A DNA stretch of 64,000 nucleotides from Minisyncoccota bacterium (GCA_036517395.1 DATDWN010000016.1:11262-75261); one strand, 5' to 3'. Positions 17,900 to 59,668 are shown, numbered from the stretch's first letter. A program made the numbers and translations. The notes: generated by a model not told the origin, from the letters alone.

Positions 17900-20159
17900 G
17901 CCTTTTTTTCTCTTCCTGCAAAATTTCTAGTGCGCGGGGAAGTTCTATTGTGTACACATCATCTTCTTTCAGAGAGCGAAAATCTTTTTGATGTACTATG
18001 TATGGCCCGAAACGTCCAATGTTTGCCGTTATCTTTTCACCGGTATCAGGATGAACCCCCAAGACTTTCGGAAGCGACAAATATTTTAGTGCATCAGCCA
18101 ATGTCACCGTGCTCAAATCTTTCTCTCTCGGTATTGATGCCATTTTTGGCTTAATTGCTTTTTTCGAACCCTTGCCCTTCACCCTCTCTCCAACCTGAAC
18201 ATATGGCCCGTACTTTCCAATATTTACAAAAATCGGCAAACCAGATTCCGGATCAACTCCTACGGGTTCATCCTTTTTAATCTCCTCTCCCGCCATAGTC
18301 AAAGCACCTTCACAGTCAGGATAGTTAGAACAGGAAAGAAACTTGCCGTTTCGAGAAAGTTTTATAATCATATCTTTGCCACATTTTGGACATCGGAATT
18401 CGAGACCGGCGTCACCCAGGTTTGTGATCTTATCAATTTTTTCCTTGGCTTTTACATCGGCCAAAAATGGCTTATAAAAAGTAGCCAATGTTTTTACATA
18501 TTCTTCCTTACCCTCGGCTATGAGGTCGAGTTTATCTTCCATGTCAGCCGTGAAGCTGTCGCTTATGTACTCGGCAAAATTTGCTTCCAAAAAACTAGAT
18601 ACAACATCGCCCGTGTCAGTGGGTACCAGTGCCTTGCTCACTTTCTCCACGTAACCTCTATCCTCCAAAGTTTTTATGGTTGAAGCGTATGTACTAGGCC
18701 TTCCTATGCCTCTTTTCTCAAGTTCCTTAATCAATCCTGCTTCAGAGTATCTTCCTGGTGGTTCGGTCTGCTTTTCTTCTGTATTAATTTTTTTCAAATT
18801 AAGAGCCTCACCGATTTTGACTTTTGGCAATTCAACATCATCTCCTCGCGAAGCCGGATCTCCGAGGAGCCATCCAGCAAATTTAATTTGCGAACCAGTT
18901 ATAGAAAAATCCGGAATATGTGTGTCAAGGACAGTCCTTGACATTGACACATTTGCTGATATTTTGGTTCGAAGTGTCAGAGCATCTTTCATTTGCGATG
19001 ACACAGTTCGTCGCCATATGAGCTTATAAAGTTTTTTCTGTTCATCATTAAAACCGACATGCTCGGCTTCAAAATGTGTTGGGCGTATAGCCTCGTGCGC
19101 CTCCTGTGCGTTTTTGGATTTAGTTGCAAATTTTCGTATTTGTAAATATTCTTTACCAAACTTTTTCTCCACCACTGCCGCAATCTGTGCTATAGCAACA
19201 CCACTCAAGTTTGTCGAGTCCGTGCGCATGTATGTAATATGTCCACACTCATATAATTTCTGTGCAATACCCATTGTTCTTGATGGAGAAAATCCTAGCC
19301 GTGATGATGCTGTCTGTTGAAGTGTGGAGGTTATGAAAGGCGCACGAGGGGATTTTTTCACATCCGTCTCTTTTACATCTTTCACAAACCAGCTGTTTTC
19401 CTTTCCTCCCTTTTCTGCAATTTCCACAATCCGCTCCATTTCTTTTTTATCTGTTGGTTCTTCTTCGCAGACAACAGTAAAAATCTGTTTTCCCCTAGGC
19501 AACGCCTCGGGAGATTTATCTGAGGTATCCGAGGCGTTGCCTAGGGAAGAGATCTCTGCTGAAATAATCCAGAAAGCATGAGACTTAAAAGCCCGGATTT
19601 CTCTCTCGCACTCCATGATAATGCGCAGAGCGGGGGATTGGACGCGTCCGGCAGAGAGGCCATATCGTACTTTTTTCCATATCAAACCCGACAAGTCGTA
19701 TCCCACGAGCCTATCGAGGACTCGCCTTGCTTCCTGCGCTTGTCGCAAATTCTGATCGATATCCCGTGGATTTTTCAAAGCTTCCTCTATCGCTTCCTTA
19801 GTAATTTCCTGATATGAAACCCTCTTCACTTTTTTGTTATGTACTATATGTTCTGTGCCCTTATCATTAATAAGTTCTGCCAAGTGCCATGCTATCGCCT
19901 CACCCTCGCGGTCGGGGTCAGTTGCAAGCAGAACTTCACTGGACTTTTTGGCCAAAGCTTTTATACCATTGACCACTTTCTCCTTGCCTTTGGAAATTTC
20001 ATAGTGCGGCACGAAACCACCCTCGATGTCGATGGCCACTTTGTTCGACTTTGGCAAATCACGAACATGGCCGACAGAAGCAACCACTTCATATCCACTT
20101 CCAAGATATTTTGAAATAGTCTTGGCTTTGGCGGGGGACTCAACGATAAGTAACTTCAT
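17874..20159 (-). CDS. topA: DNA topoisomerase I
   Basis: Toprim 'LLIVESPAKAKTISKYLG', active-site region, C-terminal Zn ribbons 'CPKCGKDM', 'CSNYPDC'. Confidence 0.9.
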   Translation of the reverse strand: MKLLIVESPAKAKTISKYLGSGYEVVASVGHVRDLPKSNKVAIDIEGGFVPHYEISKGKEKVVNGIKALAKKSSEVLLATDPDREGEAIAWHLAELINDKGTEHIVHNKKVKRVSYQEITKEAIEEALKNPRDIDQNLRQAQEARRVLDRLVGYDLSGLIWKKVRYGLSAGRVQSPALRIIMECEREIRAFKSHAFWIISAEISSLGNASDTSDKSPEALPRGKQIFTVVCEEEPTDKKEMERIVEIAEKGGKENSWFVKDVKETDVKKSPRAPFITSTLQQTASSRLGFSPSRTMGIAQKLYECGHITYMRTDSTNLSGVAIAQIAAVVEKKFGKEYLQIRKFATKSKNAQEAHEAIRPTHFEAEHVGFNDEQKKLYKLIWRRTVSSQMKDALTLRTKISANVSMSRTVLDTHIPDFSITGSQIKFAGWLLGDPASRGDDVELPKVKIGEALNLKKINTEEKQTEPPGRYSEAGLIKELEKRGIGRPSTYASTIKTLEDRGYVEKVSKALVPTDTGDVVSSFLEANFAEYISDSFTADMEDKLDLIAEGKEEYVKTLATFYKPFLADVKAKEKIDKITNLGDAGLEFRCPKCGKDMIIKLSRNGKFLSCSNYPDCEGALTMAGEEIKKDEPVGVDPESGLPIFVNIGKYGPYVQVGERVKGKGSKKAIKPKMASIPREKDLSTVTLADALKYLSLPKVLGVHPDTGEKITANIGRFGPYIVHQKDFRSLKEDDVYTIELPRALEILQEEKKRRGFKKKSK

Positions 20160-20198
20160 AGCTATTGATTATTACCTCAAAAAAAATATTTGTCCAAT

Positions 20199-20350
20199 TT
20201 TATCTGCGACGAGAGAGGAGCGCGTGAATGTGTAATCACATTCACAGCGTCCGAACGAGGAGTAGCAATGGTAAAAACCCCGCCCCTCTGGGGCGGAACA
20301 GGGGTCCAGGGCTTGCCCTGGGGTTTCATACCATTGATTAAAAACAATTG
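20199..20350. repeat. 140-bp structured repeat (family C), copy 1, between topA and dprA
   Basis: Near-identical to 42403-42540; hairpins GTGAATGTG-TAAT-CACATTCAC, GCCCC-TCTG-GGGGC, CCAGGGC-TT-GCCCTGG; carries the SD and mini-ORF. Confidence 0.8.
20267..20350 (+). CDS. 27-aa mini-ORF (MVKTPPLWGGTGVQGLPWGFIPLIKNN) inside the 140-bp repeat, perfect SD
   Basis: GAGGAG 5 nt upstream of the ATG. A second copy at 42471 differs by a synonymous CCC/CCA change. Confidence 0.4.
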
Positions 20351-20570
20351 AGCCTCGTGATGGAATCACGAGGCTCTCAAGAACGACGGAGTGTCTTACG
20401 GAGTTGTCTCAACTCCAGTGGCCATTTGCCCGAGCGGACGAGGTGGTCTTCCTACCCACGAATCCTCGACTCGTTTCGACCAACATCTTTCACAGAATGC
20501 TGCTCTTGTTCCTGGTGGGACGAGTGGTCCCCAGTGGTGAATGCACACATTCCCCACTTGAACACAAATT

Positions 20571-21425
20571 CTATTTCAAATGTATCTCACCCATCATTTC
20601 CTCAATCAGTCCCTTTATCTCCATCGTAGCAATTATAGTCTGAGCCGCGTAAACTGGTTTCCCTAGGCGGCGGATTATTTCATCTCGGGAAAGCGGCTCG
20701 TGCAAAAGCTCAATCAGCTCGCGTTCGTCCGTCGAGCAGTCGGAGTAGTCACGCATTTGGACCAGCTCGTCGCGCGGGCGCAGGCCGAGAGCTGTGACTA
20801 TGTCACTTGACTGTGTTATGGGTGTTGCCCCAAGTCGCAGAAGCATGTGTGGCCCCTCGGAAGTTTTGGAAAAAATAGAGTTCGGTACGGTGAAAACATC
20901 ACGGTTGTATTCGGTGGCGTATTTTGAAGTGATGAGTGTGCCTGATTTCAATTCCGCTTCGACAACTAGTGTTGCCTGACTTATTCCCGCAATGATTCGA
21001 TTGCGTTGTGGAAAATTATATGGAAACGAGGGGTAGCTATCTTCAAATTCAGAAATGAGTGCGCCTCCACTTTCTACAATTTCTTCAGCAAGTTTTCTAT
21101 GGCTGTGAGGATATAAAACTTTTTCCGAAAGCCCAGATCCGGGAACCGCCACAGTTGGTAAACCAGTTTTCAGAGCCGCACGATGTCCGATTGAATCAAT
21201 ACCCAAAGCCAGACCGGACACTATGGTAATAGAATATCCACGCAAGCCTTCAATTAATTTCTCACAAACATTTCTCCCATACTCGCTATATTTTCTTGAA
21301 CCAACCACAGATAAATATTTCTCCGTCTTCGGCAACTCGCCCACGATTCGCATTTTTTCCGGCGGGTCGTGTATTTGAAGCAGGAGTGGAGGAAAATCTT
21401 TTTTCAATAAATCTCTAATTTCCAT
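20571..21425 (-). CDS. dprA: DNA processing protein DprA/Smf
   Basis: 'VVGSRKYSEYG...IVSGLALGIDSIGHRAAL' Rossmann-like DprA core. Confidence 0.85.
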   Translation of the reverse strand: MEIRDLLKKDFPPLLLQIHDPPEKMRIVGELPKTEKYLSVVGSRKYSEYGRNVCEKLIEGLRGYSITIVSGLALGIDSIGHRAALKTGLPTVAVPGSGLSEKVLYPHSHRKLAEEIVESGGALISEFEDSYPSFPYNFPQRNRIIAGISQATLVVEAELKSGTLITSKYATEYNRDVFTVPNSIFSKTSEGPHMLLRLGATPITQSSDIVTALGLRPRDELVQMRDYSDCSTDERELIELLHEPLSRDEIIRRLGKPVYAAQTIIATMEIKGLIEEMMGEIHLK

Positions 21426-21520
21426 AGCTTTATTATATTGGAAATTATAAATTAAGTCATTGAAAATTGACTGAAAATTGGAAATTGTAAATTGAAAATT
21501 CCAATAGTGTTTGGTACACT

Positions 21521-22810
21521 ATGGCTATGCTAGATATAAAATTCATAAGGGAAAACAAAGATCTTATTTCTGCTGGAGCTCTAAAAAAGCACATCCAGTT
21601 TGATGTGGAAGCACTTCTCAAACTTGATGACAAGCGTCGTGAGCTTATGACTTCTATCGAGCAGAAGAGGGCCGAACAAAATGAAGTTAGTGAGAAAATA
21701 GTCAAAATCTCTGACAAGGCTGAAAAAGAGCAAATGATAGCCGAGATGAAGTTGGTCAAGGACGAGTTGCAAAAAGAAGAAGAGGAGCTGAAAACGGTTA
21801 TGCACGACTGGCAGGTACTGATGGTAGCTGTGCCAAACATACCCGATATATCCGTGCCTGATGGTGTGGACGACAAAGACAATAAAGAGCTTAAACGATG
21901 GTCTCTTTTTGGGGGCGATATTCCAAAGTTCGATTTCACACCGAAAGACCATATCGAGCTTATGCAAAATCTCGGCATACTCGACATCGAGCGTGGGGTA
22001 AAAGTGGCGGGCTTTCGAGGGTACTTTCTCAGAGGCGATGGCGCAAGACTGCAGTTTGCCTTGTGGAGATTTGTCGAGGATTTCTTTTCCAAAAAGGAAG
22101 GCTTTGTGCCGATGATTGCTCCTACGCTTTTAAAAAGAGAAACTTTTATGGGTACTGGCTATATTCCGCAGGGCGAGGAGGATTTGTATAAAACTCAAGA
22201 TGGCGAATATCTGGCGGGTACGGCCGAAGTCGGAATGATGGGCTACTACATGGATGAAGTTTTGCAAAAAAAAGATTTGCCAATAAAAATGCTTGGATTC
22301 TCTTCTTCTTTTCGTCGTGAGGCCGGAAGTCATGGCAAGGACACTCGGGGTATTTTGCGTGTGCACGAGTTTTATAAATTTGAACAAGTTGTTTTGTGCG
22401 AAGCTTCACACGCCGAGTCAGTAAAATATCATGAGGAAATACAGCGCAATACAGAGGAGATTACGGAGGCTTTGGGTTTGCCATATCACGTCGTAGCGAA
22501 TTGTGGAGGGGATCTCGGGTTGGGACAGGTCAAAAAATATGATATCGAAGTCTGGCTTCCATCGGAAAATACGTATCGCGAGACAGGCTCGGCTTCTTAC
22601 TTTCACGATTTTCAGACTCGTCGCTTAAACATCCGCTACAAAGATGACGACGGCAAAATGAAGTTTGCTCACTCGCTAAACAATACCGCTCTTTCTGGTA
22701 GGCCACTTATTATGATTGTAGAAAACGGACAGCAGGCTGATGGTTCGATAAAAATTCCAAAAGTGCTTCAGCCGTACATGAACGGTCAAACAACTATTTC
22801 AAGGAAATAG
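21521..22810 (+). CDS. serS: seryl-tRNA synthetase
   Basis: N-terminal coiled coil and class II motifs ('FRREAGSHGKDTRGILRVHEF', 'GRPLIMIVENGQ'). Confidence 0.9.
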   Translation: MAMLDIKFIRENKDLISAGALKKHIQFDVEALLKLDDKRRELMTSIEQKRAEQNEVSEKIVKISDKAEKEQMIAEMKLVKDELQKEEEELKTVMHDWQVLMVAVPNIPDISVPDGVDDKDNKELKRWSLFGGDIPKFDFTPKDHIELMQNLGILDIERGVKVAGFRGYFLRGDGARLQFALWRFVEDFFSKKEGFVPMIAPTLLKRETFMGTGYIPQGEEDLYKTQDGEYLAGTAEVGMMGYYMDEVLQKKDLPIKMLGFSSSFRREAGSHGKDTRGILRVHEFYKFEQVVLCEASHAESVKYHEEIQRNTEEITEALGLPYHVVANCGGDLGLGQVKKYDIEVWLPSENTYRETGSASYFHDFQTRRLNIRYKDDDGKMKFAHSLNNTALSGRPLIMIVENGQQADGSIKIPKVLQPYMNGQTTISRK

Positions 22811-22888
22811 TTGTAATTTAGACTTTTTAATTTAGAATTTAAAAATTAAGTCTAAATTCTAAATTTTAAATTAAAAATTTACTACCTT
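22811..22888. repeat. AT-rich palindromic repeat (family D) 5' of the ftsQ-like gene
   Basis: AATTTAGACTTTTTAATTTAGAATTTAAAAATTAAGTCTAAATTCTAAATTTTAAATT; a similar copy lies at 23792-23875. Confidence 0.65.
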
Positions 22889-23791
22889 ATGATTTCCTCA
22901 ACTTCGTCATCACTCTCTCACGAGGTATACCTGAGAAAAAAGAGAAACAAAAAACTTTTTCGGTATGGGTTAATTATTTTTATCATCGTAGCTCTCGTCG
23001 CTCTTGTTTCTTATGTTTCTCACAGACCACAGATTCGTATATCAAAGGTTGAACTTTCTGGAGGTGTTTTGGTTACAGAGACCGATGTCGATGCCAAATC
23101 CCGAGAGTATTTGTCCGGCTCGTATCTCTGGCTTTTCCCAAAGAACAACACTTTTTGGTATTCCGAGGGAGGCCTAGCGGACTATCTCAAGGAAAGTTTT
23201 AAAAGAATTGACACCATAAGTATTCACAGAAAAGATCTGAAAACTTTGGTGGTGGAAATAAAAGAACGCAAACCAGTAGCCATGTGGTGCGAAGGTAATC
23301 CAGGAGAAGTGCGACCAAGCTTGAATGCTGGGTCAGAAGTGCAACCGAGCGGGAGCGAGGGCGTACTGAGCTCAGCAGAGCGAACGTGCTATTTCCTAGA
23401 CCAGAATTCAACCATTTTTGCCAAAGCCCCAAACTTCTCGGGTGATGCCTATTTCAAATTTTATGGTTCGATTTCCGGAAACAATCCAATCGGCACGGAA
23501 TATATAGCAAGTAGCACAGAGTTCGCCGAGCTTTCTGATTTTATAATAAAGACAAAACAACTTTCACTTCGGCCTCAATATATGATTGCAAAAGATGGCG
23601 GGGAATTTAGTCTAGTTATTGCCGGTGGCGGACAGATTATGTTTGATATGCGCTTGCCCTTAGCAACTGTTGCTCAAAATCTTGAAGCGCTTTTGCGTAC
23701 ACAAGTATTGGCTACTAGCACAAGCGGAGTTCTCCCTGTCGAGTATATTGATCTGAGATATGGAAATAAGCTATTTTACAAAATAAAATAG
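22889..23791 (+). CDS. FtsQ/DivIB-like cell division protein (TM + POTRA)
   Basis: N-terminal TM, POTRA-like 'IRISKVELSGGVLVTETDV', beta domain. Confidence 0.55.
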   Translation: MISSTSSSLSHEVYLRKKRNKKLFRYGLIIFIIVALVALVSYVSHRPQIRISKVELSGGVLVTETDVDAKSREYLSGSYLWLFPKNNTFWYSEGGLADYLKESFKRIDTISIHRKDLKTLVVEIKERKPVAMWCEGNPGEVRPSLNAGSEVQPSGSEGVLSSAERTCYFLDQNSTIFAKAPNFSGDAYFKFYGSISGNNPIGTEYIASSTEFAELSDFIIKTKQLSLRPQYMIAKDGGEFSLVIAGGGQIMFDMRLPLATVAQNLEALLRTQVLATSTSGVLPVEYIDLRYGNKLFYKIK

Positions 23792-23875
23792 CAATTTAAA
23801 ATTTAGACTTTAAAATTTAAAAATTAACTATAAATTCTAAAGTCTAAATTTTAAATTTATAATGTTGAACTTCTC
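23792..23875. repeat. AT-rich palindromic repeat (family D) 3' of the ftsQ-like gene / 5' of dus
   Basis: Direct near-repeat of 22811-22888. Confidence 0.65.
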
Positions 23876-23900
23876 GTCTAAGTTAAGATAATTTATAAAT

Positions 23901-24962
23901 ATGAACTTCTGGCATCAACTCAAACGCCCTATCATGGTTCTCGCGCCCATGGCTGACGTAACGGATGCGGCTTTTCGTCGCATCATTGCAAAATATGGTA
24001 AGCCGGACGTCATGTGGACAGAATTTGTTTCGGCTGACGGTCTGTTTATGGGAGGATATGAACATCTAATAAAAGATCTGGCTTTCACAGAAGCCGAGAG
24101 ACCTATCGTGGCCCAATTTTTCACAAGTAAACCGGAGATGATGGAGAAAGCGGCGGAGCTGGCGTGTGATCTAGGTTTTGATGGGATAGATATAAACATG
24201 GGATGTCCCGACAAATCAGTGGAAAAGCAGGGAAGTGGTTCAGCTCATATAAAAGATTATAAAAATGCTCAAAAAATTATTCGCGCGGCCATGAGAGGTG
24301 CGGAGAAAGCATTCCAAAGGTCCGACCTTAAAAACCCAAACTCCCAAGGTCGGACCTTGGGTCCCATACCCGTTAGTGTCAAAACGCGTATTGGTTACAA
24401 TAAAAATGAACTTGATACATGGCTACCGGCACTTCTTGAGACCAATCCCGCGGTGATAACAATCCATGCACGAACCAGAAAAGAAATGTCCTCTGTTCCT
24501 GCTCGTTGGGAGCATGTGAAGGAAGCTGTGGAGATAAGAAATAAATTTTTTGATTCTAGTGGCAAGAAAAGTCAGACGCTGATTTTTGGCAATGGAGATG
24601 TCGTAGGCACTGATGACGCTAGGAGAAAGTGTGAAGAAACCGGATGTGACGGTGTCATGCTCGGTCGCGCGATTTTCGGAAACCCGTGGCTTTTTAACAA
24701 ACCACTCCAGATGTCAAGGACAGTCCTTGACACGAAAGATAAGGAGGTCTCGATTCCAGAAAGGTTGAGAATAATGGTTGAGCACACGAAACTTTTTGAA
24801 GAAATATTGCCATACAAAAGTTTTGCAATAATGAAAAAACACTACAAAGCCTACGTGACGGGTTGGCCTGATGCAAAAGAACTAAGATTGAAACTGATGG
24901 AAGCCAAAGATGCTGGGGAAGTGGAGGCTGTTGTGGGAGAGTATCTAGCTAGTCTGACTTGA
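23901..24962 (+). CDS. dus: tRNA-dihydrouridine synthase
   Basis: 'MVLAPMADVTDAAFRRI', 'GFDGIDINMGCP', TIM-barrel Dus motifs; contains two palindromic in-frame segments. Confidence 0.85.
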   Translation: MNFWHQLKRPIMVLAPMADVTDAAFRRIIAKYGKPDVMWTEFVSADGLFMGGYEHLIKDLAFTEAERPIVAQFFTSKPEMMEKAAELACDLGFDGIDINMGCPDKSVEKQGSGSAHIKDYKNAQKIIRAAMRGAEKAFQRSDLKNPNSQGRTLGPIPVSVKTRIGYNKNELDTWLPALLETNPAVITIHARTRKEMSSVPARWEHVKEAVEIRNKFFDSSGKKSQTLIFGNGDVVGTDDARRKCEETGCDGVMLGRAIFGNPWLFNKPLQMSRTVLDTKDKEVSIPERLRIMVEHTKLFEEILPYKSFAIMKKHYKAYVTGWPDAKELRLKLMEAKDAGEVEAVVGEYLASLT

Positions 24963-25299
24963 CTTATTTTTCATATAAGCAGATTCTATAAGTAGAAATC
25001 ACAGGTATGGGGTAGCGGGATACTGCGGGATGTTTCCCGGCGACCCATAACTGGGTCTTAATGGCTCTCGCGTTTCTTACTGTGATTTTTAGGGCTTGAC
25101 GTGCTGGGGCGTCTTGGGGGCGTCGGTATGTGCATGAAGTGCACGCCGATTTACATAGCTCCGAGACGCAGCTGGTGTCTCCCCGCATTCTCTGAAAGGA
25201 GATTGCAATCGCTAGATCAGACTTTATACCTCGGGGTCGGGACGAGACCCCGAGGTATCCAACGCCGACTCGCATACGAGCGGTGTTTTTTGTTATACT

Positions 25300-25440
25300 A
25301 TATCCGCACACTAACTTTGCTCTCGTTGCATTCAGTCTCAAAATATAGATGTATATCTTAGATTTAGATATAATTTCTAACTTTTGCTTGATTGTTAATG
25401 TGGCAACAGGGAGACAAGAGCAAAGTTAGTGTGCGGATAA
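25300..25440. repeat. family A MITE-like element, copy 1 (TIR TATCCGCACACTAACTTTGCTCT), abuts dnaX ATG
   Basis: Terminal inverted repeats; right end GTGTGCGGATAAATATG includes the dnaX start codon. Confidence 0.8.
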
Positions 25441-25442
25441 AT

Positions 25443-41982: not shown

Positions 41983-42030
41983 AATAAAATCATTCCGACA
42001 TTCTCAAGAATGTCGGAATGATTTACTAAA

Positions 42031-42438
42031 ATGGATATGGATATAGACGAGGAAGAATTAAAAAATAAACTTACGCCAGAGGAGTATGCGGTTTTGAGAG
42101 AAAAGGGAACAGAAACTCCATTTAGCGGAAAGCTTTTACACGATGATAGAAATGGAATGTATAAATGCAAAGTCTGCGGCGCTTCACTTTTTTCATCCGA
42201 TGCCAAGTTTGATTCTGGTACCGGTTGGCCAAGTTTTGATCAGGCCATTCCCGGAAGTGTCAAAGAAGTGAAGGATGACACCCTCGGAATGAGTCGTATA
42301 GAAGTGGTTTGCGCAAAATGTAACTCTCATCTCGGTCACTTATTTGATGACGGTCCAACTAAAACTGGAAAAAGATATTGCTTGAACTCCGTCTGCCTTG
42401 ATTTATCTGCGACGAGAGAGGAGCGCGTGAATGTGTAA
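42031..42438 (+). CDS. msrB: peptide methionine sulfoxide reductase B
   Basis: 'CKVCGASLF', 'CAKCNSHLGHLFDDGP', 'RYCLNS'. The last ~10 codons extend into the 140-bp repeat. Confidence 0.9.
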   Translation: MDMDIDEEELKNKLTPEEYAVLREKGTETPFSGKLLHDDRNGMYKCKVCGASLFSSDAKFDSGTGWPSFDQAIPGSVKEVKDDTLGMSRIEVVCAKCNSHLGHLFDDGPTKTGKRYCLNSVCLDLSATREERVNV

Positions 42439-42590
42439 TCACATTCACAGCGTCCGAACGAGGAGTAACAATGGTAAAAACCCCGCCCCTCTGGGGCGGA
42501 ACAGGGGTCCAGGGCTTGCCATGGGGTTTCATACCATTGATCCGCACACTAATTCTGCCATGGTCCTGTTTTGAAATAATCCTAAAATAA
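42403..42590. repeat. 140-bp structured repeat (family C), copy 2, after msrB; mini-ORF 42471-42590
   Basis: Two substitutions versus copy 1; the one inside the mini-ORF is synonymous (CCC to CCA). Confidence 0.8.
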
Positions 42591-51067: not shown

Positions 51068-51134
51068 ACTCTACCTGACTCTTTAAACAAAAAAGTCTTA
51101 AAATAAGGGCTTTTTTGTTGTCCACAAAATCTGC

Positions 51135-51163
51135 TTGACAGCATAGACATAGTATGCTAAGCT
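51135..51163 (+). promoter_or_regulatory. near-consensus sigma-70 promoter (TTGACA-17-TGcTAAGCT, extended -10)
   Basis: TTGACA at 51135-51140, 17-nt spacer, TG at -15/-14, TAAGCT at 51158-51163. Confidence 0.55.
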
Positions 51164-51169
51164 ATACAT

Positions 51170-51576
51170 CAGGAAGGGTGCCTGATCAATAGAGCATCCG
51201 AGGGGACAACGTTGCAGGGGCGAAAAAAAAGAAAGGTCCATTTTTTCAGCGTCAGTCCCGAGGAGGCCAGATTGGCTTGATGTTTCTAGGGCATCAAACG
51301 GGTGAGAAGAGCTAGACTTCTGCCCGGAGCCAGTCTGATGGTTGTGTGGCCGCCTCAATGTTTCACACTCGGCGGGGGGTTATCCCGCTTAAATACATCC
51401 AGGCAGTTACGTTCATGTTGCCTAAGTGCCATGTATGTAACACCCGTCAGAGCGGAAGCGTTTATTGCTTTCGCCGAGGACAACCTGTTTAGTTAGAGGG
51501 GTAGAGGGCCGACGAAAAACTAGCCGCCGACTCTCTCACCCAATCACGCGCCGATCCCTCTGGGCTCGGCGTTTTG
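51170..51576 (+). ncRNA. candidate structured RNA (~400 nt) or long cis-regulatory leader of tgt; class undetermined
   Basis: GC-enriched relative to flanks; starts downstream of the promoter; ends in hairpin GCCGATCCCTCTGGGCTCGGC plus a T-run, 47 nt before the tgt ATG; no convincing ORF. Confidence 0.4.
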
Positions 51577-51622
51577 CATTATAAAAATTTCTTTTTTTAT
51601 GCATAAATGCTAATCTGGTTTA

Positions 51623-52909
51623 GTGAAATCTTTTTCTTTTGATATACATTCTGAACTTCCAAATTCTCTCGGACGAGTTGGTACAATACACACTCCACAT
51701 GGTGACATACAAACACCGGCATTTGTCGCAGTTGGAACAAAAGGCACGGTAAAAAGTTTGACGCCGGAACAGGTCGCAGATACTGGCACACAAGTCATAA
51801 TCGCAAATACATATCATTTATATTTAGAGCCCGGAGACGAAAAGATAAAAAATATTGGAGGGTTGCACAAAGCGATGAACTGGTCTGATCCTCTTATGAC
51901 CGACTCTGGCGGCTTCCAAGTTTTTTCTCTAGGTGTCGCATATGGCAAAAAGATTAGCAAAGTTTCAAAAAAAGATGAACTAATACTATCCAAGCCTCTC
52001 CCTATGTCCGACATAGGGAGATTTGCGGAAACAAGACTTCAACAAGATGAGGCAGTACCAAAGATTGCTCGAATTGATTCCAATGGGGTAATGTTCCGCG
52101 ATCATATATCGGGCAGCGCTCACTATTTTACTCCGGAAAAATCGATAGAGATTCAGCACAATCTCGGCGCAGATATTATTTTTGCCTTTGACGAATGCAC
52201 CTCACCTCATGAGTCGCTTCATTATCAGAAAGAAGCGCTTGAGAGAACTCACCGCTGGGCTCGACGTTCTCTTGAACATCATTCCGACATTCTCAAGAAT
52301 GTCGGAATGAATGGCCCTGCGATTTTTGGCATTGTGCAGGGCGGGCGAGATGAAACCTTGCGTAAAGAAAGTGCAAAATATATGGCAGATTTAAGGGCCG
52401 GAGGTCCTGAACGAAGCGAAGGATTCGACGGTTTCGGAATAGGCGGATCATTTGAAAAAGAAGATATGAGCAAGGCAGTAGAATGGTGCAATCAGATTTT
52501 GCCAAGAGAGAAGCCAAGGCATCTGCTTGGTATCGGCGAGCCAACCGATTTATTTATGGCGGTTGAGTTCGGGTGTGATTTGTTTGACTGTGTTTCACCC
52601 ACTCGTATCGCTCGAAACGGCGGAGTTTATACAAAAGAAGGAAGAGTCAATTTACTGAATCAAGAATTTCGAGAAGATTCAAAACCTCTCGACCAAGGTT
52701 GTCTCTGCTACACATGCAAAAACTTTTCGTGCGCTTATGTTGCACATCTCTTTCATGCAAAAGAAATTTTGGCTTATACGCTGGCATCAATACACAACCT
52801 TTATTTTATAACTCACATGGTGGATGGTATGCGCGAGACTATGCAAAGCGGGGATTTTGAAAGCTACAAAAAAGATTTTTTAAGTAAATACTACAGGACT
52901 AATTTGTGA
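51623..52909 (+). CDS. tgt: queuine tRNA-ribosyltransferase
   Basis: 'LMTDSGGFQVFSL', 'DCVSPTRIARNGG', Zn site 'CLCYTCKNF...H'; carries a 30-bp palindromic segment at 52290-52319. Confidence 0.9.
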   Translation: MKSFSFDIHSELPNSLGRVGTIHTPHGDIQTPAFVAVGTKGTVKSLTPEQVADTGTQVIIANTYHLYLEPGDEKIKNIGGLHKAMNWSDPLMTDSGGFQVFSLGVAYGKKISKVSKKDELILSKPLPMSDIGRFAETRLQQDEAVPKIARIDSNGVMFRDHISGSAHYFTPEKSIEIQHNLGADIIFAFDECTSPHESLHYQKEALERTHRWARRSLEHHSDILKNVGMNGPAIFGIVQGGRDETLRKESAKYMADLRAGGPERSEGFDGFGIGGSFEKEDMSKAVEWCNQILPREKPRHLLGIGEPTDLFMAVEFGCDLFDCVSPTRIARNGGVYTKEGRVNLLNQEFREDSKPLDQGCLCYTCKNFSCAYVAHLFHAKEILAYTLASIHNLYFITHMVDGMRETMQSGDFESYKKDFLSKYYRTNL

Positions 52910-52921
52910 TATATTAGGCGA

Positions 52922-55021
52922 ATGCAGTTTAAAATACACAGGGAGTTCGAGCCCGCGGGGGATCAGCCCAAAGCTATTGAAGCATTAGTTGATGGAGTAA
53001 AAAAAGGTCTGAAACATCAGACACTTTTTGGTGTGACTGGATCCGGTAAAACTTTCACGGTAGCAAACGTCATACAAGAAATCCAAAAACCAACTCTGGT
53101 CATCGCCCACAACAAAACTCTAGCCGCTCAGCTGGCTCAGGAATATCGCGAATTTTTCCCGAACAACGCCGTGCATTATTTTGTTTCTTATTACGACTAC
53201 TACCAACCCGAGGCCTACATGCCCGTCTCTGACACATATATAGAGAAGGAAGCAATGATAAATGAGGAGATTGAGAGACTTCGTCACGCTTCGACGCAGG
53301 CTCTTCTCACACGAAAGGATGTTATCATCGTCGCCTCAGTTTCTTGCATCTATGGCCTCGGTTCTCCCGTCGAATATGAAAAAGTAAATATGAAAATAGC
53401 CGTGGGACAGGAAATTTCTCGGGCGGAATTTATCAGAAGTTTAGTTGATGTCCATTTTGAGAGGACTAGCGCAGATCTTTCGTCGGGACAATTTCGAGCC
53501 ATAGGGAACATGTTAGAAATTATGCCGATTTCAGAAAAAAATATTTACCGTATTGAAATCGAGGCCGGCAACCACAGTACCAGAGCAAAGCTCGGTACGG
53601 GGCATAGAATAAAACAAATATTGGAAATTGACTCGATTACTCGAAGTATAGTAAGAGAAGTCAGCGCATTTTTTCTTTTTCCCGCCAAACATTTCATTTC
53701 CACGAAAGAGCAAAACGAAAGAGCCTTCAAATCTATCAAAGCGGAACTGACCGAGCGACTAAAAGAATTAGAAAAAGAAGGCAAGTTGCTCGAAGCGGAA
53801 AGGCTGAAGAGACGCACGACTTATGACTTGGCTCTTATCCGCGAGATGGGATATTGCAACGGCATAGAAAACTACTCTCGGCATTTTTCTGGGAAGATGG
53901 CGGGAGAAGCGCCTGACACTTTGCTTTCATATTTTCCCCACAAGGCCGACGGTTCGGCAGATTTTTTGACGATTATCGATGAGTCTCACGTTACGGTTCC
54001 GCAAATAGGTGCTATGTATGGAGGGGATTCATCTCGAAAACAGTCGCTTGTTGATTTCGGATTTCGATTACCAAGCGCAAAAGACAACAGGCCTTTGAAA
54101 TTTAAAGAGTTTGAAGAGAGGATGGGACAGTGTATATATACGAGCGCCACCCCGAATGATTATGAAAGAGAACACTCACAGCAGACCGTGGAGCAGGTTA
54201 TACGACCGACGGGTCTTATTGATCCAGTTGTTGAGGTTCGACCAATAGTATCCTCCCCGAGGTCTGACCTTGGGAAATTAGATGTTAAAGGTCAGACCTC
54301 TGGAATTCCGTATCCGGGTCAAATAAAAGATTTCATACAAGAATCCGAGAAAGCCATAAAAAAAGGTGGGAGGGTTATAGCCACAACTCTAACTAAAAAG
54401 ATGGCAGAAGATTTAAGCGAATATTTGAAAGAGGGGAATATTAAAGCGGAATATTTGCACAGTGATATAAAAACAATACAGCGCATTGAGATACTGACAG
54501 CTTTTCGTCGCGGTGAATTTGATATTTTAGTCGGAGTGAATTTGCTTCGAGAAGGTTTGGATTTGCCGGAGGTGACGCTTATTGGTATTTTGGAAGCGGA
54601 TAAAGAAGGATTTCTACGAAGCGAAACTTCTCTTATACAAATTATAGGTCGTGCGGCGCGAAATGTAGATGGAAAAGTCATTTTGTACGCCGATCACATG
54701 ACCGGTTCGATGGAGTATGCCATAAACGAGACAAACCGCAGACGCGCTCTGCAAGTGGACTACAACACAAAACACGGTATCACTCCGAAAACTATAATAA
54801 AAAAGATTCAGGACATAACCGACCAGATGAAGACAGAACATGCGAAAACTGTGAGCGATTTACTCGAAATTGATAAAAAACTATTTGAAAAAGATCCACA
54901 GAAATTGATAAAGCAAAAAGAAAAACAAATGGAGGGAGCTGTGAAAATCTTGGACTTTGAGACGGCCGCTATCTTGCGTGACGAGGTTTTGGAATTACAG
55001 AGGTTACTTGGAAAAAAATGA
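52922..55021 (+). CDS. uvrB: excinuclease ABC subunit B
   Basis: 'GDQPKAI', 'GVTGSGKTFT', helicase motifs, C-terminal UvrB/C interaction 'AAILRDEVLELQ'. Confidence 0.95.
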   Translation: MQFKIHREFEPAGDQPKAIEALVDGVKKGLKHQTLFGVTGSGKTFTVANVIQEIQKPTLVIAHNKTLAAQLAQEYREFFPNNAVHYFVSYYDYYQPEAYMPVSDTYIEKEAMINEEIERLRHASTQALLTRKDVIIVASVSCIYGLGSPVEYEKVNMKIAVGQEISRAEFIRSLVDVHFERTSADLSSGQFRAIGNMLEIMPISEKNIYRIEIEAGNHSTRAKLGTGHRIKQILEIDSITRSIVREVSAFFLFPAKHFISTKEQNERAFKSIKAELTERLKELEKEGKLLEAERLKRRTTYDLALIREMGYCNGIENYSRHFSGKMAGEAPDTLLSYFPHKADGSADFLTIIDESHVTVPQIGAMYGGDSSRKQSLVDFGFRLPSAKDNRPLKFKEFEERMGQCIYTSATPNDYEREHSQQTVEQVIRPTGLIDPVVEVRPIVSSPRSDLGKLDVKGQTSGIPYPGQIKDFIQESEKAIKKGGRVIATTLTKKMAEDLSEYLKEGNIKAEYLHSDIKTIQRIEILTAFRRGEFDILVGVNLLREGLDLPEVTLIGILEADKEGFLRSETSLIQIIGRAARNVDGKVILYADHMTGSMEYAINETNRRRALQVDYNTKHGITPKTIIKKIQDITDQMKTEHAKTVSDLLEIDKKLFEKDPQKLIKQKEKQMEGAVKILDFETAAILRDEVLELQRLLGKK

Positions 55022-55050
55022 TTTTATGATATTCTGTGTGAGGAGGGGTT

Positions 55051-55152
55051 ATGATGCACATTCTCGCCTGGGCATTTGTGCCGGTGCTTGTGATTCTGGT
55101 TTTCGGGTCTGTGCTGAATCTCAGCACAACCAAGATCACCAAGCGCTGAATA
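55051..55152 (+). CDS. 33-aa GC-rich hydrophobic mini-ORF with strong SD (MMHILAWAFVPVLVILVFGSVLNLSTTKITSAE)
   Basis: AGGAGG 4-5 nt upstream; single TM helix; followed by hairpin GGCGGGTC-GACCA-GACCCGCC and a T-rich tail. Confidence 0.4.
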
Positions 55153-55162
55153 GGTTTTGAGG

Positions 55163-55200
55163 CGGCGGGTCGACCAGACCCGCCGTTCGTCGTATTTGTG
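55163..55200 (+). terminator. intrinsic terminator-like hairpin after the mini-ORF
   Basis: 8-bp GC stem followed by TTCGTCGTATTTGTGTG. Confidence 0.45.
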
Positions 55201-55252
55201 TGTTTGTGGTAAGATATTGTCCTCACCCAATAGGCAGTCGGGGAGTTTATTT

Positions 55253-55394
55253 GCATGTCCGCACACCAACTTTGGCATTGTCTCTTTGTTGCTAGGTTAG
55301 GAATTACATCAAATTTTAGATGTATATCTATATATGGATGTATGTATAAACTCTGAGACAGGGCAATGATGCCAAAGTTGGTGTGCGGATAAAT
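55253..55394. repeat. family A element, copy 9, abuts uvrA ATG
   Basis: CATGTCCGCACACCAACTTTGGCATTGTCTC ... GATGCCAAAGTTGGTGTGCGGATAAATATG. Confidence 0.8.
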
Positions 55395-58013
55395 ATGAAA
55401 AATGAAGGTTTAATCATCGTTAAAGGGGCGCGGACCCATAACTTGAAAAATATCACAGTCGAAATGCCACGGAACAAAATGATGGTTTTTACCGGTTTGT
55501 CTGGCTCGGGCAAATCCTCTCTGGCTTTTGATACTATATTTGCCGAGGGACAGAGACGATACGTTGAGTCTTTGTCCTCATACGCTCGACAATTTTTGCG
55601 TCAGATGCAAAAGCCGGATGTGGACGAAATATCCGGCCTCTCCCCTGCCATTTCCATTGATCAGAAATCTCGTTCAAACAACCCACGATCGACCGTGGCC
55701 ACTATCACAGAAATTTACGACTACTTGCGTATTTTGTATTCACGCATCGGCCATCCGCATTGTTTGGTTTGTGGCGATGAAATCACAAAGCTCTCGAACG
55801 AAGAAATTAAGAATTTTGTCTTGGAGAAAATTTCTAATTATCTTACACCAACACGAAGTGTTGGCACAGAAAGGTATAAGGCGTCAGCTACGACAGAAAT
55901 ATACGCTCCGGTGGTTAAGGGTCGCAAGGGTGAATATTATCAAATGCTTTATGACTTGCTAGGCAAAGGCTACTCGCATGTCCTTATAGACGGTGAGAAA
56001 AAATCACTTCGAGAGAAAATTGAACTTTCGAAAACAAAAAGACATGTTATAGATGTGCTTGTGGATAGTATTTCTCTATTAGATTTTAGGATAGATAAAA
56101 AAAGCGCAGAAGAGAGGCTGTCGGAAGATTTGGAAAAGGCGCTTGGTGAGTCGGATGGTCAGGTCAAAGTGGTTTTCCGAGATATGGCCCTTGAAAAAAA
56201 CAAGGACTATAAGCCCGAAAAAGTTTTCATGTCCTCCAAGCTGTCGTGTCCCAAAGATGGCTACTCCTATCCTGAAGTCGAACCACGGCTTTTTTCTTTC
56301 AACTCTCCTTATGGTGCCTGTCAAGAATGTAATGGTTTGGGCACACGACATTTTTTCGGCAAGGAAGCTTGTCCCAAGTGTAAGGGCGCTCGTCTGCGCG
56401 AGGAAGCGCTTCACGTTTTGATTGGAAAGCGCAATATCGTCGAGCTGACTGCGATGTCCATAAAAGATGCTTATGATTTCGTAACAAATTTAAAACTGAC
56501 AGAACGAGAGAAAAATATTTCCAAAGTTGTTATGCGAGAAATCGAGTCACGACTTCTTTTTATGATTAATGTCGGTATTGAATATCTTTCTCTGGACAGG
56601 CGTGCTCACACTCTTTCTGGCGGAGAAGCTCAGAGAATTCGCCTAGCATCCCAACTTGGTTCCGGACTTGTTGGCGCTCTGTATGTTCTTGACGAGCCCA
56701 CTATCGGACTACACTCTCGCGATAACGATCGGCTAGTTAAAACACTTCTTAACCTGCGAGATCTAGGAAACACTATTATTGTGGTCGAGCACGATGAAGA
56801 CACTATTTTCGCCTCGGATTATATTGTTGATATCGGGCCTCGTGCCGGAGTTCACGGTGGCCATGTTGTTGTGGCGGATTATCTAGACAAACTAATCACG
56901 GCAAAAACTAATCCTTCTGGATCTCTGACGCTCGACTATTTGCGCGGAGATAAAGTTCTGGAAGTGCCAGAAGAGAGACGAACATATCCAAAAGGCGATC
57001 TACAAATCCGTGGTGGAAAGATTTTTAATATAAAAAATATGAACGTCGATATTCCGCTCGGCAGATTTATTGCCGTCACAGGCGTTTCTGGCTCGGGCAA
57101 GTCTTCTTTTGTTTACGAAATTCTGCACAAAAACCTCCAAGCGCGTTTTGAGAGAAAATATCGCTCGGCAGAAATTTTTAACTGCAAATCTTTCACTGGC
57201 ACAGAATATCTAGGCAGGGCGATTTTGATAGATCAATCCCCAATAGGTCGAACGCCTCGATCGAACCCAGCGACATACACAGGTTCGTGGACATTTATTC
57301 GGGATTTATTCGCCGAATCAGCCGAAGCTCGAGCTCGTGGTTGGAAAGCCAATAGATTTTCTTTCAATGTGAAGGGTGGTCGATGCGAAACATGTCAGGG
57401 TAACGGTATGATAGAAGTGGAGATGCATTTCTTGCCGACTGTTTATGTGCCGTGCGATGTCTGCAAAGGTAAAAGATTTATGAAAGAGACCTTGGAAGTG
57501 CATTATAAGAAAAAAAATATTTATGATGTGTTGAAAATGACCGTGGAGGAGGCGTTAAAGTTTTTTGAAGATATCCCGTCGATATACGATCGTCTGAAAT
57601 CAATGGATGATGTTGGTCTTGGCTATCTCGAGCTCGGGCAGAGCGCCACAACTCTTTCTGGTGGCGAAGCTCAGAGAGTGAAAATATCCTCAGAGCTTTA
57701 TCGTCCGCATTTACAAAAAACTATTTATCTTTTGGACGAGCCAACTATCGGTTTGCACTATGAAGATGTCAAAAAATTAATCGAGATTTTGCAAAAGCTT
57801 GTGAACAAAGGAAACACCGTTCTTGTCATCGAGCACAATATGGATATTATAAAGTCGTGTGACTATGTTTTGGACATAGGCCCAGAGGGTGGAGATGGTG
57901 GGGGGCAACTGGTGGCCAAAGGTACACCTGAGGAAGTAGCGGAGAATGAGAAGTCGTACACTGGTAAGTATTTAAAGAAAGCACTTAAACAATATAAGGC
58001 GTATAGGAAATAA
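55395..58013 (+). CDS. uvrA: excinuclease ABC subunit A
   Basis: '[10 protein letters not shown]', two ABC modules '[14 protein letters not shown]' / 'GVSGSGKSS', 'LSGGEAQR' x2, Zn fingers. ATG at 55395 is fused to the MITE repeat (alternative GTG at 55383). Confidence 0.95.
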
Positions 58014-58020
58014 ACAAAAC

Positions 58021-58044
58021 GGCGCCGAGGTTGTCCTCGGCGCC
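58021..58044 (+). terminator. perfect 10-bp GC hairpin after uvrA (GGCGCCGAGG-TTGT-CCTCGGCGCC)
   Basis: Seen directly; lacks a U-tract. Confidence 0.4.
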
Positions 58045-58062
58045 TACCAGACTCATCCAGGC

Positions 58063-58236
58063 TTATCGTCGCCGAAGCCGAATCGTGTCACAGATCTCGT
58101 CGATGATGCAACCAAGCATGGTCAGCCCTGCTCCCAAAGCGAGAGTATGACGAATCGTCATCATGTCCGCTGTGAGCAACACTATCGCCATCTCGAGAAG
58201 TGCAAACCACAGGTTGTTTCGTTGCCTCTCAGTCAT
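58063..58236 (-). CDS. 57-aa GC-rich small membrane protein with strong SD (MTERQRNNLWFALLEMAIVLLTADMM...)
   Basis: AGGAGGG 4 nt upstream of the ATG on the minus strand; two hydrophobic helices; GC-rich versus flanks. Confidence 0.4.
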   Translation of the reverse strand: MTERQRNNLWFALLEMAIVLLTADMMTIRHTLALGAGLTMLGCIIDEICDTIRLRRR

Positions 58237-58270
58237 GAGCCCTCCTACTTCGTATAATATCATATTTATA

Positions 58271-59668
58271 ATGAATAATCGAAATATTAAAAAAGTAATA
58301 TCTAAATTCCCGGATTCTCCTGGGGTGTATATTTTCCTTGGCTCGCCGAAACGTAGTGGAGGCGGCAAGTCCAAAAGTGAAATTCTTTACATAGGCAAAG
58401 CCACATCCCTCCGTGACCGAGTTAGAACTTACATGTCAAGGACAGTCCTTGACACTCGAAGTCCACTCATAGCTAAGATGCTGGAGGAGTTTGAAGATAT
58501 CGAATACATAAAAACAGATTCTGTTTTGGAAGCACTTGTTTTGGAAGCCAATCTCATAAAAAAACACCAGCCGGAAGCAAATATAAAAGAAAAAGATAAT
58601 AAAAGTTTTAACTTTGTTGTGATTACCAAAGAAGATTTTCCTCGTGTTTTAGTTATCCGCGGTCGTGAACTGCTGCAATCGCGCATTATGTCAAGGACGC
58701 CCCTTGCCAAAAATTCAAAAATGGCAAAGGGCGTCTTTGACATTAAAAATCAGTTCGGTCCATTTCCAAACGGCGGACAGCTGAAGGAAGCACTGAAAAT
58801 AATTCGCAAGATGTTTCCGTATCGGGATAAGTGTAATTCTGCGGAAGTCCGACTTCCGCAGAAAACGTATTCAGGGAAGCGACCGAGCGGGAACGATGGG
58901 AGTACTGAGGCCAACAGGCCGAATGTAGCCTGTTTTAATCGTCAGATAGGTTTGTGTCCAGGAGTTTGTACAGGAGAAATTACAAAAGAGGATTATCAGA
59001 AACAAATCCAAAATATTATTTTGTTTTTTCGGGGTAATAAAAAGCGATTGCTGAAAAACCTTGAGAAACAAATGCGAGGTTTCGCAAAAAATCGAGAGTT
59101 TGAGAAAGCCGGCGAAGCTAAAAAAACAATTTTTCTTCTAAAACATATTCAGGATATATCGCTTATAAAAGAAGATTGCAAAGGTTCGACCTTAAAGAAT
59201 GGTGCCCAAGGTCGAACCTTGGATTCAGAGACATTCCGAATCGAATCTTATGATGTCGCACACATGTCTGGACAAAATGTTGTTGGGGTTATGATTGTTG
59301 TCGAGGATGGTGAAGTGAAGAAGTCTGATTATAGGAAGTTCAAAATAAAAAACAATCCAAGTGTAAACGATACTAAAGCCTTGACAGAAGTACTGTCGAG
59401 AAGGTTGGCACATATAGAATGGCGATTTCCTGATTTGATTGTTGTCGATGGAGGGACGGCGCAAAAGAGAGTGATGGAAAAGATTTTGCGGGAGAATAAA
59501 GTGAATATTCCCGTTGTTTCTGTTGTCAAAGATGAGAGACATAAACCGAAGAATATACTAGGTGACAGACAGTGGTTAAAATATGAGAGAGAAATAATTC
59601 TAGCAAACAGCGAATCACATAGATTTGCTATTGGATATCATAGAAAGCTCAGAGGGAAGTTTGGATAA
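58271..59668 (+). CDS. uvrC: excinuclease ABC subunit C (short form, lacks C-terminal HhH)
   Basis: GIY-YIG 'GVYIF...ILYIGKATSLRDRV', UvrBC-binding 'LLKNLEKQMRGFAKNREFEKAGEAKK', RNaseH-like endonuclease domain. ATG at 58271 preferred over the track start. Confidence 0.85.
   Translation: MNNRNIKKVISKFPDSPGVYIFLGSPKRSGGGKSKSEILYIGKATSLRDRVRTYMSRTVLDTRSPLIAKMLEEFEDIEYIKTDSVLEALVLEANLIKKHQPEANIKEKDNKSFNFVVITKEDFPRVLVIRGRELLQSRIMSRTPLAKNSKMAKGVFDIKNQFGPFPNGGQLKEALKIIRKMFPYRDKCNSAEVRLPQKTYSGKRPSGNDGSTEANRPNVACFNRQIGLCPGVCTGEITKEDYQKQIQNIILFFRGNKKRLLKNLEKQMRGFAKNREFEKAGEAKKTIFLLKHIQDISLIKEDCKGSTLKNGAQGRTLDSETFRIESYDVAHMSGQNVVGVMIVVEDGEVKKSDYRKFKIKNNPSVNDTKALTEVLSRRLAHIEWRFPDLIVVDGGTAQKRVMEKILRENKVNIPVVSVVKDERHKPKNILGDRQWLKYEREIILANSESHRFAIGYHRKLRGKFG

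Follow-up and report, generated by a model that had tools for sequence, protein, structure and literature searches.

A perfect palindrome recurs in three genes

The 64,000-nucleotide stretch of DNA examined here, hereafter called the window, derives from a Minisyncoccota bacterium (GCA_036517395.1, DATDWN010000016.1:11262-75261), and the closest homologues of its proteins are those of Zambryskibacteria/Paceibacterota. It carries three exact copies of a 21-nucleotide (nt) palindrome, TGTCAAGGACAGTCCTTGACA, each located within a long open reading frame (ORF). The three host genes, whose identities were checked against solved structures, and the copies that they contain are as follows.

17874-20159, minus strand: topA, encoding topoisomerase I
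18923-18943: copy 1, in topA (gene on the minus strand), gene-sense peptide MSRTVLDT
23901-24962, plus strand: dus, encoding a Dus-family tRNA-dihydrouridine synthase (PF01207)
24712-24732: copy 2, in dus, in the linker C-terminal to GNPWLF
58268-59668, plus strand: uvrC
58434-58454: copy 3, in uvrC, in the GIY-YIG domain, a same-length substitution for the native YFNKDIVNT segment

The palindrome is composed of two 10-nt arms around a single unpaired middle base (10+1+10), which is A on the plus strand in all three window copies, and its gene-sense translation in topA, dus, and uvrC is M-S-R-T-V-L-D-T. An earlier sequence-only reading of the window had reported an identical palindrome in these genes, its common translation, and the implausibility of a chance origin. 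The three exact copies and the shared peptide were confirmed by translating each copy within its long ORF, but the coordinates reported for the dus and uvrC copies (24732-24752 and 58444-58464) were off by 20 and 10 nt, respectively. The argument against chance also holds, since 100 dinucleotide-preserving shuffles yielded zero matches to TGTCAAGGACAGTCCTTGACA even when as many as three mismatches were allowed. The recurrence of the palindrome in topA, dus, and uvrC is real.

Hairpins of the repeat have predicted DNA-folding z values from -3.2 to -4.2, and copy 1 together with its flanks has a predicted DNA folding energy of -10.6 kcal/mol. Near-identical contigs from the source population (99.98-100% identical) are too alike to inform on presence/absence polymorphism, and all of them together contain six distinct single-nucleotide polymorphisms (SNPs). 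A contig of a different sample, which matches the window at 99.98% identity across 12.4 kb, differs by only two SNPs, one of which (T>C at 24724, L094 position 2185) breaks the dus palindrome and changes V to A. The cause of this substitution could be mutability linked to the hairpin, decay of this copy, or a sequencing error at the hairpin.

The palindrome represents a dispersed repeat family

We scanned one genome per bacterial or archaeal species (596 Gb) for TGTCAAGGACNGTCCTTGACA, in which 20 bases are specified and for which approximately one chance match is expected. This count beyond the window, which had been proposed as a check, revealed 101 exact copies, which lie in 93 stretches belonging to 55 assemblies. 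Almost all of the assemblies are Patescibacteria/Parcubacteria of the candidate phyla radiation (CPR), namely Nomura-, Zambryski-, Kaiser-, and Taylorbacteria and Paceibacterota. Each assembly has one to five exact copies, with two to five present in 25 of the 55, and a viral and phage collection had 0 exact copies of the 21-mer.

The architecture of the repeat is fixed. Its arms are separated by 1 nt in 117 of 118 arm pairs, the sole exception having a spacing of 34 nt, and solo half-sites occur at the level expected by chance. Within the 64-kb window there are 13 half-sites with at most one mismatch (3.2 expected by chance), seven of which are the palindromes' own arms. The central base is free (C, 30; G, 26; T, 21; A, 21). 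The flanks are purine...pyrimidine (R...Y), A being present at just 7 of the 190 positions, so that the true length of the unit is 23 bp and its full form is R-TGTCAAGGAC-N-GTCCTTGACA-Y. Compensatory change is evident among non-exact copies, 11 of which have the double change G7A+C15T, whereas neither G7A nor C15T is ever found alone.

Most copies of the 21-mer are singlets, whose orientation is unreadable in a perfect palindrome, and tandem pairs with a period of 25-39 nt are common. Folding into a long hairpin is predicted for the doublets of a second palindrome family and for an element at 58689-58742, both described below. The class of the central base (A/T versus G/C) is the same in 60 of 69 within-genome pairs when 38 are expected (p<5e-5), and this agreement is independent of GC content. 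Therefore, the copies within a genome are related by copying rather than by independent origin.

Two types of larger mobile element were considered and rejected. A DDE-type miniature inverted-repeat transposable element would have an internal sequence, which the 1-nt spacing leaves no room for, and we saw no flanking direct repeats or target duplication and no parent element. The abutted ends of a larger transposon were rejected because, in 750 kb, arm pairs occur only at 1 nt (one at 34 nt) and there are almost no solo arms.

Five of the copies lie in high-GC metagenome-assembled genomes (MAGs; 67-70% GC; L003, L005, L011, L039, and L090) that are labeled Acidobacteria (G2_35) or Actinomycetota. 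L053 and L054 also carry the identical core, and the labels of these non-CPR MAGs include Omnitrophota. In them the core is embedded in a palindrome of ~50 nt (GGT-core-ACC plus further arms) located at gene 3' ends or between convergent genes, a placement like that of classical repetitive extragenic palindromes (REPs). In L054, the core provides the TGA stop codon of the upstream gene.

Most copies lie in frame within housekeeping genes

Locations were tallied for low-GC copies only (n=96), with a long ORF defined as one of at least 150 aa.

Long-ORF interior, xSRTVLDx frame: 52 copies
Long-ORF interior, CQGxSLT frame: 8 copies
Near a long-ORF end: 1 copy
Outside long ORFs: 21 copies
Flanking a transposase gene: 14 copies

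The bias between the xSRTVLDx and CQGxSLT frames is strong (p = 5e-9). The third frame holds a TGA and is used only as the stop of the transposase gene itself. Among the 82 copies that do not flank this gene, 60 are located well within such long ORFs, and thus the predominantly extragenic placement of REPs is not seen here.

The host ORFs encode unrelated housekeeping enzymes, including the Leu, Ile, Val, Arg, Thr, and Ala-tRNA synthetases, a pol III delta'-like protein, PurH, cysteine desulfurase, SMC, UvrA, UvrC, RecG, RNase R, TruB, TypA, ThyX, a reverse transcriptase, TopA, and Dus. The reverse transcriptase, a protein of ~360 aa with RVT_1 as its only domain, is probably of the diversity-generating-retroelement or retron type. 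Its copy of the palindrome occupies one position (ILKEILSRTVLDTDILWLL) across three assemblies (L008, L026, L075, and L081, of which L008 and L081 are from one assembly). In the LeuRS gene of L035, further unrelated short in-frame palindromes (TCTCCTGAAAGGAGA; CCTTCCCCTTTCAGGGGAAGG) lie 3' of the repeat at 5330-5400.

Because the DNA is a palindrome, it gives one peptide, (M/V/L)SRTVLD(T/I/M), in either orientation. The constant peptide reflects constant DNA and not peptide selection. The uvrC orthologues of L103 and L104, which were found by protein search as carrying MSRTVLD, have the identical 21-mer, whereas in the rest of the gene codon agreement at identical residues is only 39-51%. In more diverged uvrC forms (L101, L102, and L105) the outer arms TGTCAAG...CTTGACA are kept and the inner part is drifting. 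The sequence-only reading had allowed that the motif might be absent elsewhere and that orthologues might encode the same peptide from nonpalindromic DNA; instead, L103 and L104 use the exact 21-mer.

These data bear on the proposal that MSRTVLDT is a selected short linear motif whose palindromic coding is incidental. The identical peptide in three unrelated proteins and the preference for one frame (52 versus 8) would suit such a motif. However, codon choice is invariant even where the code is degenerate, translation of eight copies runs in the CQGxSLT frame, the third frame is used for termination, and ~21 copies reside outside long ORFs. Moreover, the changes R>K and L>F always occur together, as base pairing demands. 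We consider selection for the peptide almost certainly wrong.

Two readings of the DNA in its coding setting were also rejected. An mRNA-specific hairpin does not fit because variants whose pairing is maintained on only one strand by G.U are not biased to the sense strand. Inspection by eye for an internal promoter with TTGACA arms revealed no consistent -10 element at 16-18 nt.

A RAYT gene is bracketed by the palindrome in related genomes

A partner protein was sought by clustering all ORFs in 88 low-GC motif loci, wherein only 8-kb blocks around the motif matches were read for each assembly. The commonest neighbor of the motif is a protein of 205-233 aa present at 14 loci, which corresponds to Pfam Y1_Tnp (PF01797, IS200-like), with most members scoring above the gathering cutoff. 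Among NCBIfam models it is matched best by NF047646, 'REP-associated tyrosine transposase' (RAYT), with E values of 4e-20 to 2e-9 for genes flanked by the motif and 2e-5 to 2.5e-3 for two that are not. All scores are below the equivalog cutoff for NF047646, and the proteins are therefore distant members. All of them have the HUH triad (NHFH) and the Y-x-H-x-N motif without variation, JGI names their relatives 'REP element-mobilizing transposase RayT', and 5,322 database proteins match one of these RAYTs at E<=1e-10. Note that a tblastn search with an approximate IS200 TnpA query gave no match, and the RAYTs emerged only from the clustering of neighboring ORFs.

In 11 assemblies the RAYT gene is bracketed by the 21-mer, with one copy ending 15-32 nt upstream of the start codon and the other overlapping or abutting the stop codon. 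At five of these loci, the third frame of the palindrome (GTC AAG GAC NGT CCT TGA) encodes the last residues of the RAYT and its stop codon. In the 8-kb blocks, no assembly showed more than one motif-flanked RAYT. Some RAYT genes hold a diverged in-frame copy of their own palindrome (L018 at 1476, L024 at 2024, L028 at 4740, and L065), read as YQGPSLT, HQGRSLT, or WQGPSLE.

An independent test of the association made no use of the motif. By using a protein alignment and pattern, we fetched 80 homologous metagenome loci, 69 of which had both flanks available. A word of at least 12 nt is shared by both flanks at 59 of the 69 loci, compared with 1.45 in controls with mismatched flanks, and the shared word is usually a palindrome of 15-30 nt. 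One metagenome locus (L106) has the exact 21-mer on both sides of the RAYT. Close RAYT relatives have TGTCAAGG- or TGTCAAAG-type palindromes whose inner parts differ, and distant relatives have unrelated palindromes, some like the second and third families of the window (AAGGTCTGACCTT; CGAAGTCCGACTTCG). Where loops are asymmetric, the flanking copies can be read as inverted (L109, L110, and L134). Each RAYT lineage is accompanied by its own palindrome, such that RAYT and repeat co-vary.

We conclude that the 21-mer is very probably the REP of a REP/RAYT system in ultra-small Parcubacteria, with copies mostly in frame inside genes. This agrees with the suggestion of the sequence-only reading that the element might be an intragenic mobile palindrome with a partner protein, the partner being the RAYT that the palindrome brackets in related genomes.

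A rival explanation is a duplex-DNA-binding site that benefits the host and is tolerated in coding DNA. It might be a parS-like centromere, be bound by a nucleoid-occlusion or nucleoid-associated protein, or serve a dimeric regulator as a 10-1-10 operator. Some operators of dimeric regulators do resemble this layout. In addition, the three window copies lie near a switch in GC skew and gene orientation at ~21 kb, the outer arms are retained where inner parts decay, and the window encodes ParB (15242-16276), yet no canonical parS within three mismatches is present anywhere in the 64 kb. However, a ParB homologue is present at 0 of 93 motif loci, and relative L080 has a near-canonical parS (AGTTTCACATGAAACA) at position 424. 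Multi-copy MAGs have their copies on different large contigs, several palindrome families coexist in one genome, and the tandem doublets and central-base agreement fit copying. Such a site also does not predict bracketing of a RAYT gene, and we judge it very unlikely. A nucleoid-site role in particular is not supported, given the absence of ParB from the 93 loci, the one to five exact copies per assembly, and the central-base agreement that points to copying.

A ParB/parS site was rejected; the repeat has no similarity to the 16-bp TGTTNCACGTGAAACA-like palindrome, none of the 93 loci has ParB, and the copies are dispersed over separate large contigs.

The uvrC site shows same-length replacement

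At the N-terminal site of uvrC, native Y-FNKDIVN-TR has become Y-MSRTVLD-TR, 21 nt for 21 nt, with no change in length. Comparison with 119 orthologues bears out the earlier proposal that the segment here replaces rather than lengthens the native sequence. Alignment of the other two host proteins gave a different outcome, as both are lengthened. Dus has 9 additional aa at the palindrome relative to the consensus of 119 orthologues (68-77% identity), and TopA has a net gain of 5 aa relative to the TopA of L056 (64% identical) and of 6 to 11 aa relative to solved TopA structures.

In a rough neighbor-joining tree, palindrome-type UvrC peptides are interspersed with native forms, and in the lineages with recurrent replacement the immediate flanks are saturated at synonymous sites. 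The replacement could have arisen by insertion followed by a compensating deletion under a strict length constraint, and proteins P0160 and P0208 resemble untidy intermediates of such a process. Alternatively, it could be a templated replacement. A gene-conversion hotspot, which had also been suggested, is tenable for this site only, where the 21-for-21-nt replacement is found in several lineages.

The linker that precedes the endonuclease domain of UvrC is likewise often composed of such palindrome units, and the window protein exceeds the shortest orthologues by ~55 aa. In the precomputed Pfam record of window UvrC (P0121), the GIY-YIG domain that most orthologues have is missing; the palindrome replacement at residues 55-61 together with a nearby insertion may have pushed this domain below threshold.

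Same-length replacement might be explained if the palindrome were a DNA-uptake signal that accumulates through biased uptake coupled with recombination, in the manner of Neisseria and Pasteurellaceae. The replacement at a recurrent uvrC site is patchy among lineages, the repeat has lineage 'dialects', some intergenic copies are terminator-like, and the window contains dprA. However, one to five exact copies per assembly is far from the density of ~1 per kb, and half-sites, which occur alone at the chance level, are almost never found unpaired. The within-genome agreement of the central base is unexpected for sites made independently by point mutation, synonymous sites beside identical cores are saturated with no recent transferred patches visible, and the association with RAYT is left unexplained. 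We therefore regard the uptake-signal role raised by the sequence-only reading as highly improbable.

Another possibility is that the hairpin originated as a REP and has since been domesticated as a regulatory element acting through RNA or DNA, so that it is now kept in particular genes for DNA repair, tRNA, and translation as a target of RAYT binding or of RNase. This would fit the perfect core in uvrC orthologues whose proteins are only 66-70% identical, the recurrence of sites in orthologues of LeuRS, the reverse transcriptase, the holB-like protein, PurH, cysteine desulfurase, and UvrC, and the stable mRNA hairpins that are predicted (z -2.8 to -8.3). Against this, no single function is common to the host genes, asymmetric variants of the G.U type show no sense-strand preference, no Rfam family matches at the palindromes, the element is absent from most orthologues, and a SNP breaks the dus copy within one population. 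Domestication seems very unlikely to account for the family, but some copies may have taken on such a role secondarily.

A bolder extension of the REP/RAYT interpretation is that the CPR machinery may also overwrite coding DNA, exchanging 21 nt for 21 nt in register at favored positions, for example the GIY-YIG helix-loop of uvrC, and would have done so repeatedly in independent lineages. A transposase would then be rewriting protein loops from a template, and the process might have been co-opted to place RAYT-binding hairpins in the mRNA or DNA of repair and translation genes. We hold this to be unlikely. If true, in-register overwriting would be a mode of action that is not known for any HUH transposase.

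A proposed mechanism and the observations that challenge it

If the 21-mer is the REP of a REP/RAYT system, then the RAYT, a Y1 HUH enzyme related to IS200/IS605 TnpA, would recognize the 21-mer hairpin and would be the candidate mobilizing enzyme. By analogy with IS200/IS605 and with E. coli TnpA-REP, it probably acts on the hairpin in single-stranded DNA. Copies would spread within a genome by copy-and-paste, which would keep the arms and the central base alike. Because CPR genomes have almost no intergenic space, most landing sites and most surviving copies would be intragenic. Purifying selection would then retain copies that preserve the frame (21 nt being seven codons) and would purge those that shift the frame, adopt the TGA frame, or fall where the structure tolerates no change. 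The survivors would be seven-codon units in tolerant loops and linkers of large enzymes, with one frame better tolerated than the other.

Several observations weigh against this interpretation. No RAYT is present in the 64-kb window or in the 99.98%-identical contigs, and thus the link for the source genome rests on relatives. Within the blocks fetched, a motif-bracketed RAYT was seen in only 11 of ~52 CPR assemblies. Classical REPs are imperfect, mostly extragenic, and present in hundreds of copies, whereas the CPR repeats are perfect, mostly intragenic, and represented by few exact copies per genome. The same-register 21-for-21-nt replacement in uvrC, found in 18 of 120 orthologues that are scattered over the tree, is not predicted by a simple insertion model.

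Additional palindromes and other features of the window

Perfect palindromes with a stem of at least 9 bp number 18 in the window compared with 1.9 expected. A second family, CAAGGTCNGACCTTG, occurs as doublets in dus and uvrC and as a single copy in uvrB. The individual elements are as follows.

24316-24359: second-family doublet in dus, AAAGGTCCGACCTTA + CAAGGTCGGACCTTG, a predicted long hairpin like that of a REPIN (a REP doublet forming a hairpin)
54258-54272: second-family single variant in uvrB, CGAGGTCTGACCTTG
58689-58742: nested hairpin in uvrC, with REP-type outer arms TGTCAAGGAC / GTCTTTGACA enclosing the inner palindrome GCCCCTTGCCA...TGGCAAAGGGC, encoded peptide MSRTPLAKNSKMAKGVFD
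58837-58863: third palindrome type, in uvrC, TTCTGCGGAAGTCCGACTTCCGCAGAA, which resembles the REPs flanking other RAYT lineages (L136, CGAAGTCCGACTTCG; L181, CGAAGTGGGACTTCGCAGGA)
59180-59221: second-family doublet in the uvrC linker, CKGSTLKNGAQGRTLDS

The partial copy of the 21-mer that had been recorded at 58689 is real and constitutes the left arm of the 54-nt nested hairpin. This hairpin has predicted folding energies of -20.6 kcal/mol as DNA and -34.7 kcal/mol as RNA, and it lies within a region of uvrC whose length varies among orthologues. Similarly, the dus doublet is inside an insertion of ~13-20 aa relative to orthologues. The variable linkers of CPR proteins may often be built of such hairpin units.

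More perfect palindromes are located at 51997-52021, 52279-52310, 41987-42024, 20224-20245, and 42427-42448. Two of these are within tgt, one of the two being a 32-mer that recurs between msrA and msrB. A 22-mer, GTGAATGTGTAATCACATTCAC, occurs twice, 5' of topA and at the msrB end. The extra palindromes in tgt, at msrA/msrB, and upstream of topA may be REPs of other families or terminators.

The first 12 kb of the window (1-12000) form a low-GC island (29-37% versus ~41%), probably an integrated mobile element. Its boundaries are marked by tRNA-Trp (715-786) and a 103-nt tRNA match at 11596-11698 on the minus strand, seen by Rfam and not by ARAGORN. Its genes encode a large serine recombinase (654-2486, minus strand), an AAA_25 protein (2942-4051, minus strand), and zinc-ribbon, TPR, and trypsin-like ORFs. 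A Pfam scan of the window ORFs found no transposase other than the serine recombinase of this unrelated island. The island also includes a full-length match to the LOOT RNA family (RF03000) at 4607-4729 on the plus strand, scoring 71.8 bits against a gathering score of 46.4. Outside the island, the ParB gene (15242-16276) encodes the N-terminal, helix-turn-helix, and dimerization domains.

Relationship to known systems

The defining features of the REP/RAYT systems of Pseudomonas and E. coli have been described (Bertels & Rainey; PMC3337134, PMC3116915). As in those systems and their REPINs, the CPR repeat is a short, dispersed hairpin that brackets a Y1 HUH transposase distantly related to IS200, each lineage has its own repeat, the flanking copies are inverted where this is readable, and some doublets are predicted to fold as long hairpins. 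Unlike them, the CPR palindrome is a perfect 10+1+10 rather than imperfect, is present in one to five exact copies per assembly rather than hundreds, and, for approximately three quarters of the copies that do not flank a RAYT, lies in frame inside protein-coding genes. In addition, the downstream CPR repeat often provides the stop codon of the RAYT itself. The CPR system is thus of the known REP/RAYT type but lacks the extragenic placement that gives these repeats their name, as its copies are mainly intragenic and in frame.

Rickettsia palindromic elements (RPEs; reviewed in PMC10969869) are likewise in-frame palindromes in unrelated housekeeping genes, where a constant peptide is tolerated by the fold. 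However, RPEs are ~100-150 bp long, are restricted to Rickettsia, and have no identified transposase, whereas the CPR element is 21-23 bp long and has a candidate enzyme. The in-frame intragenic location is therefore shared, and size, host clade, and sequence are not; the CPR element works like an RPE without being a member of that group.

IS200/IS605 elements also have a Y1 HUH transposase gene fitted tightly between two hairpins, and a mechanism using hairpins in single-stranded DNA would be expected for both. In IS200/IS605, however, two different imperfect hairpins form the ends and the complete element is mobile, whereas the CPR ends are an identical palindrome and the 21-mer alone is dispersed. 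[quoted passage not shown] PARCELs, however, are 25-residue tandem domains of surface proteins with no described link to RAYT, and the CPR repeats are single seven-codon units in enzymes. DNA uptake sequences and uptake signal sequences are also DNA-level motifs that occur in coding sequence, in preferred frames and at tolerant positions, without length change, but they are asymmetric 9-12-mers at ~1 per kb, whereas the CPR motif is an obligatory palindrome of low density that is linked to a transposase.

A literature search with the 10-mers returned unrelated primers only, and in the literature consulted we found no paper that connects RAYTs or REPINs to Patescibacteria/CPR. Work on REP/RAYT systems has been confined almost entirely to Proteobacteria, with repeats that are extragenic by definition, and the findings described above extend these systems to the huge uncultivated CPR radiation. 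They also offer a concrete enzyme candidate for in-frame palindromic elements, a long-standing puzzle from Rickettsia, and a tractable test case composed of a 21-nt hairpin and a 205-aa enzyme. For CPR bacteria themselves, the repeats add or replace stretches of seven residues in essential enzymes, among them topoisomerase I, UvrA/UvrC, aminoacyl-tRNA synthetases, and SMC. They are a source of length variation and odd insertions in CPR proteins and can break domain detection, as may have happened for the GIY-YIG domain of the window uvrC.

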